Assembly (NCBI GenBank): GCA_951406725.2
Contig: OX597837.1
Location: 24,800,001 to 24,864,000 of the forward strand
DNA length: 64,000 bases
From: Octopus vulgaris
Lineage: Eukaryota
Direction: 5' to 3'
In this document: positions 3,773-60,316 of the stretch, one piece after another
Position numbering within the stretch: position 1 is the first letter of the stretch
Layout: every line of letters starts with the position of its first letter
Program-made: the position numbers and the translations under genes
Notes under the pieces: generated by a model
Seen by the model: the letters and a program-made list of their open reading frames with translations, nothing else
Told to the model about the DNA's origin: nothing
Database searches by the model: none

Positions 3773-3821
3773 TTGTTGAATAAATGGTGAACTCTAATTA
3801 GATTTTGTTCTGTTATTACAG

Positions 3822-3939
3822 GTCTGGAAATTATAAATATAACCGAGGCACTACAGCTATTCAATCTTCCAGTACCTGTAAGATTCCGATTGTGGTTTTG
3901 AAGAAGAAAGTTACTGGTGAAGAAATGGACACATCTTAA
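3822..3939 (+). CDS. PSMB7: Proteasome subunit beta type-7, last coding exon
   Basis: ttattacag|G completes the split AG|G codon; (R)SGNYKYNRGTTAIQSSSTCKIPIVVLKKKVTGEEMDTS* has the GTTA motif and the C-terminal MDTS of PSMB7; TAA at 3937-3939. Confidence 0.93.
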
Positions 3940-4004
3940 ATATTTCTCTTGTATATTTGCCACCTTCATTATTGAAACCTCTCATGTTTAATTTAGATCA
4001 ATTC

Positions 4005-31543: not shown

Positions 31544-31964
31544 GGATCTTTTCAGCAGTTTCTAACATAATTTCTAGGTAACTAAAAATTTTAAACTTCA
31601 TATACTGGTAGAATGTGTTTATAAAACATCTTTTTCTCTTGGCTTTATTGAGAAAATTCTATAGTTTGTGAGATATTTCTTGTTTTTTTCTTCAATTTCT
31701 GCAATTTCAACCAATCAATGACGTCTATTGAGGTAAAAAAAACTTTCTGTGCCGTATGAATATGTCCCTCCTTTAAGAAACAGATTGGGTTTATTTACAT
31801 TTGTGAAGAAAAAAAAGATACTCTTCCCCCCACCCCTAACCCTAACCCTAACCCTAACCCTAAAACAGATTGAAATGCAATAGATCGATACTAGGGTCAT
31901 ATTTATGGGTGACAATTTCATATGACACCACTAGAAAAAACCGCCGTTCAAACCGAAAAGATCC
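31544..31964. mobile_element. Merlin-like MITE containing (CCCTAA)5
   Basis: Termini GGATCTTTTC/GAAAAGATCC; 8-bp TSD GAATAATT at 31536-31543 and 31965-31972; telomeric repeat at 31834-31863. Confidence 0.8.
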
Positions 31965-39487: not shown

Positions 39488-40165
39488 AAACTAGATGTTA
39501 AAGGGTTAATCTCTCATCCCTGCTTAATAAGGAGATAAGCTGCAGCAACATGTGCCCCTGTAATTGTTGTTGTTGCTGCTGCTGGTTAGCACCATGTCAG
39601 CTCTGTTTGAGCAGACCTATTATCAAAGGTATTCCACCTATGAGCATTTCTACTTTCATAGACATAGTTTATCTAAGATTACACTAACCCAGGGTCTCCT
39701 TCATTTTTAAGATGGTAAGTTGTGAATTAAGGAAAATTTGACTGCTATTTTTAGCAGATTGAGCACAGCTCCTGCTATTCTCATAAAATCAGGATTTCTT
39801 GAATTGGAACTGGTTAAGGTTTTCGTAAGATGTGAAGAATGGGTCTGCTTTCAACCCTTTATCATGCACATTAATCCATCAAATGTAATGCTTATTTATC
39901 CACATTGACTGGCTTCCGTGCCGGTGGCACGTAAAAAACACCAACTGAGCTTGGCTGTTGCCAGCCTCACCTGGCCCCTGTGCTGGTGGCACATAAAAAG
40001 CACCCACTACTCTCACAGAGTGGTTGGCATTAGGAAGGGCATCCAGCTGTAGAAACATTGCCAGATCAGACTGGAGCCTGGTGCAGCCTCTTGGGTTCCC
40101 AGACCCCAGTCGAACCGTCCAACCCGTGCTAGCATGGAAAACAGACATTAAACGATAACGACGAC

Positions 40166-40223
<58 letters not shown>

Positions 40224-41777
40224 CTTCTTCTTCTGATGATGATGATGATGATGATTGTTTCAAATTAATCATGCATTATCATATAGCCCCGTGATTTTGA
40301 TGATGCAATTATTTCTGTTTGGAATGGGTAGCTACGAGAAGCCAGATTTGGCCAGTTTGAAAATAAAAACAGACCAAAAATTTGGGCTAGATATGGCTTG
40401 TTTGAATGCTAAATCATTAATGGCAGAATGATTCAATGAAGTAGATAAATTTAGACCAGTGGCATGTACAAAGCACCTTTCTTACATTGGGCCTCACGGA
40501 GGCAGTGACAAATGACTGAGACCTTTGGCAATATGCCAGGCTTCAGAGGGAAGACTCGTCAAGCCGAGTGAAATCATAGTCCTGGCAGATACTGGTGTCA
40601 TGCAAGAGGCACCCATGCTGGTGGCACGTAAAAGCACCCATTACACACTTGGAGTGGTTGGTGTTAGGAAGAGTATCCAGCCGTAGAAACCATGCCAAAT
40701 CAGCCTGGTGTCTGGTACAGCTCCCTGCCCCAGCTTGCAAGCTCTGGTCAAGCCATTCCACCCATGCCAGCATGGACAACAGATGTTAAACGATGATGAT
40801 GATAATTGGCATGGCACAAATCCTTCCTGACGTAATTTTTCTTCTCATCCTCATATTCATCATCATCACCATCTTCTTAGTACTCATCATCATCATCAGC
40901 TGCAGCAGCAGCAGCAGCAAAATCATCATCATCAGCAGCAGCATCTTCATCATCATCATCTTCTATGTACCCTCAAACCACACCTTGCTGCCTTTAAAAA
41001 AAAAGGGGGCACATTGGCTAATATAGTTGTAGATGCAGTAAATGTTTGCAAAAAAGGACGGGGTGGTCATGGTTGGAACATCTAAATCATATCTCTTTTC
41101 AGTCAGGGATAATCTGGACCTCAACAACGACAACAACAGCGACAAGATTTATGATTGATTTTGATGTTTGCTTTTATTCCTTTTAAGGCCCACATGTCGG
41201 ACCCTTTTTTTCCCCCCCTTTCTCTCCCTCTTTGTCACCTACTTCAACCATTCTCCATCTCCTCCTTCTCATCTTCAGACCCATTCATTCCTCCTCTGCC
41301 TCCCATCATTCCTCTTCGTCTCCTTACAATCCTATTCAACAAACAGTCAACCCTTGCTCTCTCTCTCTCTCCCCACTGAAGTTGACTCATCCAGACAAAA
41401 CGGTCAATCTCAAATGAAATCAATAGAAAACAAGGCAAGGTTGTTAAACAACAACAACAACAACCTGTTTGTAATGACCATTCACCAATACACGGGTGAA
41501 GTGCGGGGGGGGTGGGGGGGAAGTACATTGCAGTAGACGTTGACAAGATAGGGCATGTACATGGAGCTATAAATCTCCCCGACACCAGCGACCACTTATT
41601 CCCTGTCGTACAACAAGCTGCTGCTGCTACTGATTATGATGATGATGATGATGATGATGGTGATTATGAGGAGGAGGAGGAGGAGGAGGAGGATACCGTG
41701 CATTCTGCAGCTCGGACAAGTGTGACGACGACAGGGTGACTTGCCTTTGTTGTTGGTGAATGAGTAGACATTGCAGA

Positions 41778-43660
41778 TGTGTCAGGTGATAACTGAGTGA
41801 CTCAGTGTCTCAGGTGAAAATGAGAAACTCAGAGCGTCAGGTGATAGATGAGTGACTCAGACTGTCAGGCGATAGATGAGTGACTCACAGTGTCGAGGCA
41901 TGGATGAGTGACTCAGGGTGTCAGGTGATGGATGAGTGACTCAGGGTGTCAGGTGATAGATGAGTGACTCACAGCATTGAGGCATGGATGAGTGACTTAG
42001 AGTGTCAGAGAATGGATGAGTGACTCAGTGTGTCAGGTGATAGATGAGTGACTCACAGCATTGAGGCATGGATGAGTGACTTAGAGTGTCAGAGAAAGAA
42101 TGAGTGACTCAGTGTCCCAGGTGATAAGGAGAAACTCAGAGCATCAGGTGATAGATGAGTGACTCAGACTGTCAAGTGATAGATGAGTGACTCAGGGTGT
42201 TGAGGCATGGACGAGTGACTTAGAGTGTCAGAGAAAGGATGAGTGACTCAGTGTCTCAGGTGATAATGAGAAACTCAGAGTGTCAAGTGATAGATGAGTG
42301 ACTCAGACTGTCAGGCGATAGATGAGTGACTCAAGGTGTCGAGGCATGGATGAGTGACTTAGAGTGTCAGAGAAAGGATGAGTGACTCAGTGTCTCAGGT
42401 GATAATGAGAAACTCAGAGTGTCAGGTGATAGATGAGTGACTCACAGCATTGAGGCATGGATGAGTGACTTAGAGTGTCAGGTGATAATAAGAAACTCAG
42501 AGTGTCGGGTGATAGATGAGTGACTCAGACTGTCATTTGATAGATGAGTGACTCACAGTGTCGAGGCATGGATGAGTGACTTAGAGTGTCAGAGAAAGGA
42601 TGAGTGACTCAGTGTCTCAGATGATAATAAGAAACTCAGAGTGTCGGGTGATAGATGAGAGACTCAGACTGTCAGGTGATAGATGAGTGACTCAGGGTGT
42701 CGAGGCATGGATGAGTGACTTAGAGTGTCAGAGAATGGATGAGTGACTCAGTGTGTCAGGTGATAATGAGAAACTCAGAGCATCAGGTGATAGATGAGTG
42801 ACTCAGACTGTCAAGTGATAGATGAGTGACTCAGGGTGTTGAGGCATGGATGAGTGACTTAGAGCGTCAGAGAAAGGATGAGTGACTCAGTGTCCCAGGC
42901 GATAAGGAGAAACTCAGTGCCAGGTGATAGATGAGTGACTCACCGTGTTAAGGCATGGATGAGTGACTTAGAATGTCAGAGAATGGATGAGTGACTCAGT
43001 GTGTCAGGTGATAACTGATTGACTTGGAGTGTCAGGTGATAATGAGAAACTCAGAGTGTCAGGTGATAGATGAGTGACTCAGACTGTCATGTGATAGATG
43101 AGTGACTCACAGTGTTGAGGCATGGATGAGTGACTTAGAGTGTCAGAGAATGGATGAGTGACTCAGTGTGTCAGGTGATAATTGAGTGACTCAGAGGAGT
43201 GTCAGGGGTGGATGAGTGACTCAGTGTCAGGGAATACTGAGTGGCTCGCTTTATCAGGTGATATATGAGTAACTCAGAGTATTAGGGGATAGATAAGTGA
43301 CTCAGAGTGTCTAGTGCTACCTTAGCAACTCAGTGTGTCACATGATAGATGAGTAACTCAGTGTATCAGGTAATAAAGGAATGATTCAGTGTTTCAGGGG
43401 TTTACTGACTCTGAGTGCCAGGTGGTAACTGAGTAACTCAGAGTGTCAGACAATAACTGAGTAACTCAAAATGTCAGGCGATAGATGAGTGACTCAGAGT
43501 GTCAGGAGATGGATGAGCGATTCGGTGTGTCAAGCAATAACTGAGTGACTCACAATATCAGGTGATATATGAGTAACTCAGTGTCAGAGTATAGGTTAGT
43601 GACTCAGAGTGTCAGGGAATGGACAAATGACTCAGTGCATCAGATTGTGAATACTCAGTG
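41778..43660. repeat. 28-bp satellite with a 139-bp five-monomer higher-order repeat; TGAGTGACTCA core
   Basis: Consensus GATAGATGAGTGACTCAGAGTGTCAGGT, ~65 monomers; HOR e.g. 42262 to 42401; no ORF. Confidence 0.95.
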
Positions 43661-43904
43661 ATATGTCATTAATCTATGTACATTAGTAGTGATGTAGACG
43701 GGGCCCATTCTGACTGAGTCCTCACATTTAAGACAATATTATGTTGGTCGTAGTTCAAAATCTCAAGAGGAAATTGTGTTAAATACTAGGATACAGAAAC
43801 GGTTTAGGGGTAAATATGATTGGAGAATTGAGATTCTTTTGGAAGCAAGCAGTGGGACTGACATAGAAAAGGTTGGATCTTTATGTGCACCATAGTCTAT
43901 GTAG

Positions 43905-44289
43905 TGGAAGCACTCCGTCGGTTACGACGACGAGGGTTCCGGTTGATCCGACCAACGGAACAGCCTGCTCGTGAAATTAACGTGTAAGTGGCTGAGCACT
44001 CCACAGACACGTGTACCCTTAACGTAGTTCTCAGGGATATTCAGCGTGACACAGAGAGTGACAAGGCTAACCCTTTGAAATACAGGTACATCAGAAACAG
44101 GAAGTAAGAGTGAGAGAAAGTTGTGGTGAAAGAGTACAGCAGGGATCACCACCATCCCCTGCCGGAGCCTCGTGGAGCTTTTAGGTGTTTTCGCTTAATA
44201 AACACTCACAACGCCCGGTCTGGGAATCGAAACCGCGATCCTACGACTGCAAGTCCGCTGCCCTAACCACTGGGCCATTGCACCTCCAC
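43905..44289 (-). mobile_element. SINE family D, full length
   Basis: Reverse complement of 17435-17820; TSD agtctatgtag at 43894-43904/44290-44300. Confidence 0.9.
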
Positions 44290-45438
44290 AGTCTATGTAG
44301 ATGTAATGTTTGAAAACAAGCTGAGATGGTCTTGGTTGAGATGTCTTTGATCTTATGTCATCTCAGTCAGGATTGACTTAGGGCTGAATGATGATGACAA
44401 CAAATGTCACAAATGTCCTTCTCTGGTATTTGGTTTGCTAGATATAGTAGTTAAATCACCCTCAAAATTAAAAGTAAATAATGGAAAGATACATTAAATA
44501 ATGTGGTTCTAAATACACTGGGTCCGATAAAAAAGATTGAATGATCATGAGTAGAATGTCCTTGATCATAGGCCTGCCTAATCAGAACTGGCCTTGGGCT
44601 AAACAACAACAACAACAATAACAAAGGAGTGAAGCTGGTGTTGTCATAATTAATGTAGGAAATCAGGAAACACTGATTAATTAATTAAAATTGATCCTGC
44701 AGTGAGGAGAAAAAGTTGTTTAATGATTAATTCAGATTAAGAAGGGAGATAATCCTGGGAATATAATTAATAAAAAATAAGGATAGAAAGTTGTATAGAA
44801 GTACATGCTTCCCATCACCCTCTTTCTCTCTCTTCCTCCCTCTCTCCCTCTGTCTCTTTCTTTCTCTGTTCTGTATGTGCACACACACACACACATACAT
44901 GCATACACACATGCATGCATGGTAGTTGTCAACTCTTAGACAAGTATGACCATCACAAACAAATTATCTTACTCAAGATATTAAACACAATAGCTGTCAG
45001 CAGTGTCCAGACTGAAATTTAAAGTCAATAACAGCTTGCACAACACTGCTAAGACTCTCTTCTACAAATCCAATTACTCCAGAAACAAGGAAGAGCAAGG
45101 TTTCCAACAGGTGTTATTTCAGAATTTCTCTTTCCTAAGAGAGACATCTAAACAAAGACTACGGGGTTTGTCACTACCAGCTGTTGGATGGCTGTTGAGT
45201 CACCAGAGTTCATCTGTCCTTTGAAAGGTTTTGTTTTCCATCCTGCAGAGTGTCCAACAAAAATCACTCCCCCTTACCAAACAGGCTTGGTTTAGTCACT
45301 GACGGCCTGACCATGTGGCCAGTTGTATTGGGTTACATGTTACCAATAGCACTAAGGGTGACCCGACATGCATCCATCCATCCATCCATCCATCCATCCA
45401 TACATACATACACACACACACACACATACATACATACA

Positions 45439-45471
<33 letters not shown>

Positions 45472-45587
45472 GCATACATACATCCATACATATATACATA
45501 CATATATACATACATCCAGCCCTCCAGCCATCCAACCAGCCAGCCAGCCATACATACATACATACATACATACATACATACATACAT

Positions 45588-59485: not shown

Positions 59486-60316
59486 TGGCCTTGGCTGCCA
59501 ATTTGGCCTTGGCTGCCAACTTGGCCTTGGCTGCCAACTTGGCTTTGGCTGCCAACTTGGCCTTGGCTGCCAACATGGTCTTGGCTGCCAACTTGGCCTT
59601 GGCTGCCAACTTGGGTTTGGCTGCCAACTCAGCCTTGGCTGCCAACTTGGCCTTGGCTACCAACTTGGTCTTGGCTGCCAACTTGGCCTTGGCTGCCAAC
59701 TTGGCCTTGGCTGCCAACTTGGTCTTGGCTGCCAACTTGGCCTTGGCTGCCAACTTGGTCTTGGCTGCCAACTTGGCCTTGGCTGCCAACTTGGCCTTGG
59801 CTGCCAACTTGGCCTTGGCTGCCAACTTGGTCTTGGCTGCCAACTTGGCCTTGGCTGCCAACTTGGCTTTGGCTGCCAACTCAGCCTTGGCTGCCAACTT
59901 GGCCTTGGCTACCAACTTGGTCTTGGCTGCCAACTTGGCCTTGGCTGCCAACTTGGCCTTGGCTGCCAACTTGGCCTTGGCTGCCAACTTGGTCTTGGCT
60001 GCCAACTTGGCCTTGGCTGCCAACTTGGCCTTAGCTGCCAACTTGGCCTTGGCTGCCAACTTGGCCTTGGCTGCCAACTTGGCCTTGGCTGCCAACTTGA
60101 CTTTGGCTGCCAACTTGACCTTGGTTGTCAACTTGGCCTTGGCTGCCAACTTGACTTTGGCTGCCAACTTGACCTTGGCTGTCAACTTGGCTGTCAACTT
60201 GGCCTTGGCTGCCAACTTGGTCTTGGCTGCCAACTCGGCCTTGGCTGCCAACTTGGTCTTGGCTGCCAACTTGGCCTTGGCTGCCAACTTGGTCTTGGCT
60301 GCCAACTTGGCCTTGG
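59486..60316. repeat. 18-bp minisatellite TTGGCCTTGGCTGCCAAC, ~46 units
   Basis: Direct reading; variant block repeated at 252 bp (59629/59881). Confidence 0.97.

Follow-up and report, generated by a model that had tools for sequence, protein, structure and literature searches.

Why does a single 1.9-kb locus of the Octopus vulgaris genome carry 36 copies of one transcription factor site? TGA(C/G)TCA is the site bound by Fos/Jun (AP-1), and in the window considered here (the whole stretch of DNA analysed, 64 kb long) it is concentrated in one tandem array of 28-bp units, which could be either a maintained enhancer or a repeat whose sites are passengers. The explanation that we regard as best, giving it about an even chance of being right, is that the array is a locus-specific 28-bp minisatellite with a re-expanded five-unit block, in which the AP-1 sites are likely bindable but likely passengers and not a maintained enhancer. 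Literature searches, whose coverage stopped short of subscription journals and supplements, brought up no publication describing this octopus array.

Organization of the array

TRF places the array at 41774-43616, with periods of 28, 111, 139 and 278, and decayed 28-bp units continue past this call to about 43660 (Table 1). Decomposition split it into 67 units with lengths near 28 bp (exactly 28 bp in 53 cases), and the 36 perfect TGACTCA that the initial annotation had counted by hand among 28-bp monomers were counted again. On the + strand the array is rich in G (G 608 vs C 251). TGASTCA occurs 51 times in the 64-kb window, compared with 13.2 +/- 3.6 in 100 shuffles, and 36 of the 51 fall inside the array, between 41798 and 43634, every one of them on the + strand.

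Table 1. Coordinates of the array, its parts and the neighbouring features in the window
Feature	Position	Strand	Remarks
28-bp minisatellite	41774..43660	.	67 units, 36 TGACTCA, 33 TGAGTGACTCA, 5 TGAGTAACTCA
Younger body	41809..43182	.	irregular E-A-B-C-D repeat of 139 bp; some variants have 3 or 4 units
Older-looking right edge	43171..43660	.	17 units, mean pairwise identity 67%, 7 intact heptamers
Unique right flank	43661..43893	.	single contigs in organisms B, C, F
SINE-like insertion	~43905-44289, within 43894..44300	.	between 11-bp direct repeats
Proteasome beta-subunit C-terminal exon	3802..3936	+	PF12465, E 1.2e-6
Lone TGACTCA	41383..41389	+	215 bp upstream of candidate start
G-rich box before candidate TATA	~41503-41520		
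Candidate TATA box TATAAA	41568..41573	+	motif match
Candidate initiator TTATTCC	41596..41602	+	A 30 bases past first T of TATA

The body, counted from 41821 to 43182, comprises 49 units, which fall into classes E (9), A/B (19), C (11) and D (9), with one odd unit. The AP-1 heptamer is intact in classes A, B and D and missing from C and E: class C has TGACTTA in 10 of its 11 units, and class E, 27 bp long, has AAACTCA in place of TGACTCA. The heptamer is thus kept in 28 of the 49 body units, in 7 of the 17 edge units and in the first unit, while the amplified site-dead variants make up 19 of the 49 body units. Identity between body units is highest at lag 5 (0.81) and lag 10 (0.80), other lags giving 0.70-0.75; among the edge units it is flat over lags (0.63-0.68), with no higher-order period, and in six of them the centre of the palindrome has changed from G to A. 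The right edge does decay into monomers, as had been proposed from first inspection.

Concerning the 139-bp five-monomer repeat that was also proposed, the five classes, the lag-5 peak and the two variants TGACTTA and AAACTCA uphold it, and an exact 83-bp repeat is present in the array, but a lag-5 identity of 0.81 and the irregular order of the classes make a regular, highly homogenised multi-monomer unit doubtful. The spacings from one E unit to the next are 307, 139, 139, 83, 139, 139, 139 and 137 bp.

It could be supposed that this is a structural higher-order satellite, the 139-bp unit of which would position nucleosomes or soak up Fos/Jun as a decoy. The lag-5 peak and the five spacings of 139 bp among the eight are consistent with this, yet a comparable higher-order gain is found in 8 of 39 array segments, the array is confined to 1.9 kb, and the 36 sites would be negligible as a decoy beside the roughly 45,000 GTGACTCA estimated genome-wide. 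Moreover, 28 bp correspond to 2.67 helical turns and the AP-1 sites show no helical phasing; since, in addition, 139 is simply 4x28+27 and the order is irregular, there is nothing to connect the period with nucleosomes, and its near-nucleosomal length, to which the initial annotation had drawn attention, gains no support. We consider this explanation very improbable.

The array unit also spells CAGGTG (23 times), TGATAG (17) and TGTCA (36), which we take to be E-box, GATA and TALE-homeodomain sites, respectively, and its CAG/GTGATA (the slash marking the exon boundary) resembles a weak splice donor.

A locus-specific minisatellite

A genome-wide search for copies, which had been suggested for this locus, found all 7 DNA matches and all 12 pattern matches within the array itself, the DNA search scoring one candidate and giving lower bounds. 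The array is a minisatellite of the motif-cluster type, locus-specific, and does not belong to a satellite family. Its unit lies in the 10-60 bp range of minisatellites and VNTRs, it runs head to tail at the kilobase scale and its sequence is specific to the locus; with 36 TGACTCA, the motif of a single factor repeated tens of times, it is a homotypic motif cluster as well. An alpha-satellite-like family, which needs long or multi-locus arrays, is excluded by the single 1.9-kb locus, and a satellite dispersed over several chromosomes by the search, which gave no other copy; the label of satellite, given at first, was too strong for one locus of this size. Other natures of the repeat were also considered and rejected. 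A coding repeat is excluded, as no open frame within the array exceeds 36 codons; no Rfam family matches across 40000-45500; the fold of a single 139-bp unit is no more stable than those of its shuffled versions (z -0.02); and the unit as a whole is not a quasi-palindrome (12/28 ungapped, P 0.87).

Minisatellites and VNTRs have interspersed variant repeats and diverged edges. The octopus array resembles them in its 28-bp unit, 1.9-kb length, single locus, strand-skewed G, homogenised centre and decayed edge, and differs in a core that, in the one assembly from which the array is taken, is unusually under-mutated.

A closer parallel comes from human tandem repeats with clusters of AP-1, SPI or SP/KLF motifs, up to 61 of them, described by Krumwiede et al. 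(2026, PMC13373173). Two of these repeats are repressed enhancers, and the rest showed no general gene-regulatory activity in human cells. Like the octopus array, these MORC3-restricted elements are locus-specific minisatellites (units of 20-192 bp) with tens of one motif; they come with binding, accessibility and reporter data, whereas the mollusc array is known from sequence and has site-dead classes within a five-unit repeat. At most, the octopus array may work like a human motif-cluster repeat. Units that spell transcription-factor motifs are also found in Human Satellite 3, described as a platform for transcription factors, but there they form megabase arrays (PMC11526998) with millions of motifs, compared with 36 sites at one locus in the octopus.

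Is the heptamer spared by mutation?

The initial annotation had asked whether the heptamer keeps pace in mutation with the remainder of the monomer. It does not. By parsimony it takes 16 of 111 changes where 27.75 are expected (binomial p 0.005, permutation 0.019); its frequency of change is roughly half that of the other positions (p about 0.005-0.02), and an alignment made free of anchors gives it a relative rate of 0.55. In matched neutral simulations the deficit has p 0.013, or 0.020 with rate variation, and none of the 16 novel alleles of the body falls in the core (p 0.01). From these results it is evident that the core of the array is moderately spared from mutation.

The heptamer ranks third among the 28 windows for fewest changes, and the most invariant window is AGTGACT, offset two bases to the left (simulated p 0.011; 0.031 with rate variation). 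This best window, with Z -3.2, lies beyond all 15 other segments having at least 40 changes, although these stand for only 8 arrays, since 8 of the 15 are pieces of one array, with L108 excluded. Several results, the two-base offset among them, speak against taking the deficit as selection on AP-1. In the edge alone the heptamer takes 7 of 43 distinct alleles, which is below significance (p 0.12). Both fixed variants destroy the AP-1 site and were nevertheless amplified, and within-class variants fall in the heptamer columns equally rarely in site-bearing classes (1 of 16) and in site-dead ones (1 of 16). Being equally strong in the site-dead classes, the deficit does not single out AP-1 binding. 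In 11 other AP-1-bearing segments the relative rate of the heptamer ranges from 0.54 to 1.20, and it is 0 in a further two segments that have just 3 and 5 changes; its conservation in these other arrays is no higher than that of the control word in control arrays.

AP-1 arrays across the genome

Three TGACTCA in a row gave 713 matches in the genome versus 590 for the reversed word, the first 100 listed matches representing 20 loci by manual count, and two 8-mer versions gave 75 versus 79 and 90 versus 172 matches. Genome-wide, AP-1 arrays are therefore not enriched over reversed controls. Seven other complex minisatellites were found in 934 kb, which extrapolates roughly to about 21,000 in the genome, and from this local density about 87 heptamer-bearing arrays would be expected by chance, again as a rough figure. 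At least three unrelated arrays are richer in AP-1 sites than the one studied here (L108 with 86, L174 with 71 and L170 with 62). On contigs C1 and C3 we also observed 30-bp minisatellites that are related to one another and form a dispersed family, with no fewer than seven loci (L112, L113, L115, L117-L120).

The single locus, the absence of enrichment, the richer unrelated arrays, the amplification of site-dead classes, the equal deficit in live and dead classes, the unremarkable conservation of the heptamer in other arrays and the lack of general regulatory activity in most human motif-cluster repeats lead us to prefer the passenger explanation. Counting against it are the under-mutated core, a nearby match to a TATA box and initiator, and clusters of the palindrome commoner than most controls, the last two of which are treated below. 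The make-up of the array, its restriction to one locus, its under-mutated core and its surroundings among genes are direct observations; the order of events and the binding and function of the sites are inferred. An old, degenerate array would have come first, of which the right edge would be the remainder; five units that had already diverged would then have been duplicated again as a block, by slippage or unequal exchange, giving rise to the body, and site-dead classes would have been copied as freely as site-bearing ones. The 36 AP-1 sites would likely be bound by Fos/Jun once the DNA is open. Should the passenger explanation be right, the array would be a useful control, a 2.8-Gb genome giving rise to dozens of minisatellites that spell AP-1.

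Flanks, gene context and a candidate promoter

The unique right flank was found in three of the four sequence runs examined, those of organisms B, C and F, which differ by 4, 8 and 12 letters, respectively; as the flank is orthologous there, the locus is older than the splits from these organisms. Their contigs reach 505-560 bp toward the array and then stop. Run X6, which may be RNA, shares 0.33 of words and aligned nowhere on the flank, a result that low-coverage DNA would also give, and organisms D, E and G share small fractions of words. A search for RNA runs containing the array listed none, which speaks neither for nor against expression. Beyond the flank lies a SINE-like insertion with an 11-bp target-site duplication; organism F has an empty site, which makes the insertion a presence/absence marker. 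Elsewhere in the window there are a second minisatellite (59486-60316, 18-bp unit, 46 copies, 91% matches) and an interstitial telomere-like run of five CCCTAA (31834-31863).

Concerning genes, the proteasome beta-subunit exon, 38 kb away, is the nearest coding exon found upstream among the 150 of 168 candidate window ORFs that were scanned, a separate scan taking in 5 window ORFs. On the other side, a GPCR exon shares 99% identity with an Octopus bimaculoides protein named QRFP-like peptide receptor, and the receptor ATG lies 27 kb downstream of the array on the same strand. The coding sequence of this receptor starts in an exon with a splice acceptor, a pyrimidine tract and AG, 44 nt ahead of the ATG, which implies an upstream non-coding exon. 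The gene order observed over L050-L089 is alpha-mannosidase, PhyH-domain gene, proteasome beta subunit, QRFP-like GPCR, single-exon DnaJ protein and PSMD13-like.

This arrangement raises the possibility, in our opinion a doubtful one, that the array is a promoter-proximal AP-1 enhancer (exon 1 or intron 1) of the QRFP-like receptor, the number of sites tuning its inducible expression. Besides the position and strand of the receptor and the implied upstream exon, it would account for the under-mutated core and agrees with the orthology of the right flank in B, C and F. A precedent is offered by the repeats of IFNB1 and TWIST2 (PMC13373173).

Just left of the array, moreover, at 176-206 bp (about 180 bp) and in a local GC of 0.52, there is a TATAAA followed by TTATTCC, a candidate TATA box and initiator. 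Past base 4000 of the window no second match of this kind occurs on the + strand, and the - strand has none. The background amounts to 65 matches over 2.54 Mb of strand, or 0.026 per kb and strand, so that about 1.5 would be expected somewhere in 60 kb; one further match lies in an AT-repeat in L070. Since the pair was noticed before scoring, it stays a candidate. The enhancer explanation has also to face that none of the nine other palindrome arrays has a TATA and initiator match within 450 bp, and that amplification extended to the site-dead classes, whose deficit of changes is just as large. If the promoter link were true, the locus would show, in a compact form open to testing, how a repeat can build up an inducible enhancer of a neuropeptide receptor in a cephalopod.

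Recurrence of the palindrome at other loci

The heptamer of the array is part of an 11-bp palindrome, TGAGT-N-ACTCA, of which literature searches returned no description; its exact spelling turned up in 9 papers with titles on other subjects, its degenerate spellings in none. Two such palindromes within 5-40 bp of each other gave 91 matches in the genome, which we assigned to 14 loci by our own count, 41 of the 91, beyond those listed, being attributed to three known arrays. Three loci on contig C26 are homologous, which leaves 12 independent loci, 11 besides this array. Seven control palindromes gave 4, 0, 4, 1, 7, 4 and 18 paired matches; for four of the seven, locus numbers are 1 (the first control; shared with the test set), 0, 1 and 4 (the sixth control). 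Depending on the choice of controls, the excess has a Poisson p between 6e-7 and 0.014, the latter value using upper bounds for the three controls without locus numbers, one of them with 18 matches.

These loci could be explained if TGAGT-S-ACTCA, in which the AP-1 site is overlapped by a second near-site, were bound by a dimer or stalled replication and so seeded duplications, the arrays being by-products. We hold this to be unlikely, although several observations are in its favour: paired palindromes recur more often than those of most controls; single copies of the palindrome are not enriched (971 vs 975); the full palindrome is present in 4 of the 19 other loci with GTGACTCA triples, where about 2% would be expected (p about 5e-4); and unit lengths in the palindrome arrays span 20-44 bp, their spacers being unrelated. 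The excess shrinks to p 0.014 at the upper bounds of the controls, however, and inside other arrays the palindrome shows no consistent conservation (relative rates 0.66, 1.40, 0.88, 0.79, 1.09, 0.56 and 0.39). Of 78 pairs of loci compared for kinship of their spacers, none had z over 3, but the test is weak; because it missed a known homologous pair, an old common source may still underlie the loci. The recurrence of the palindrome is explained better by a motif that promotes the formation of arrays, or by descent from an ancient common source, than by maintained function. A bolder combination, quite unlikely in our estimate, would have the protein-bound TGAGT-S-ACTCA repeatedly seeding unrelated octopus minisatellites, and the present array acting as a stress-inducible first-intron enhancer of the neuropeptide receptor gene tuned by copy number, with the five-unit repeat fixing how many of its sites are live and how many dead. 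Whether tandem repeats originate more readily around a bound motif could be tested directly on this recurring palindrome; TGAGTGACTCA, TGAGTAACTCA, TGAGTGACTTA and the plain AP-1 site can serve as probe sequences for an AP-1 versus a palindrome binder.

At 8 of the 11 other palindrome loci the centre is G or C in both copies (p 0.015-0.03), and these loci consequently contain the AP-1 heptamer. Six of the 11 lie on contigs C24-C28, a range picked post hoc, and two are inverted rather than tandem repeats; L192:2169-2257 (C11) and L198:2040-2170 (C1) are short fold-backs, in which longer inverted repeats have the palindrome in their arms or enclose it centrally. A transposon flank common to the palindrome arrays was rejected, only the three C26 loci being homologous among 15, and so was a viral origin, viral contigs holding five isolated palindrome pairs.

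The only array-level match to the array studied here is a weak one (75% over about 75 bp, E about 1e-4) to L191:1436-3582 (C5, 110.79 Mb), a 44-bp array whose core is TGACTCG in 35 of 48 units. TGACTCG is the meAP-1 site, which Fos/Jun binds when methylated (Gustems et al., PMC3950711); this parallel concerns the sister array and not the AP-1 array described here. For the G/A variation of L191, CpG decay is an explanation that serves equally well as meAP-1.

A neighbouring gene class common to the palindrome loci was also sought, in 294 of 348 candidate ORFs at 11 loci, with short exons missed, and no pattern emerged; the ORFs nearby include a caspase cluster, ferrochelatase and transposon domains. 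L220:5362-9039 (+) (C25, ~1.02 Mb) holds a 1,226-codon open frame that has no Pfam match. On C26, a highly diverged 27-bp palindrome array extends over roughly 10 kb (G000:C26 ~12.123-12.134 Mb; L209, L195, L210), and on its minus strand reading frames run for as many as 233 codons without a stop, encoding a repeat of 9 residues, although stops are numerous overall. On the same contig, at G000:C26:33.70-33.74 Mb (L224, L226, L227), at least six caspase ORFs surround a 40-bp palindrome array; they are mostly single long frames, and three of them have a CARD match.
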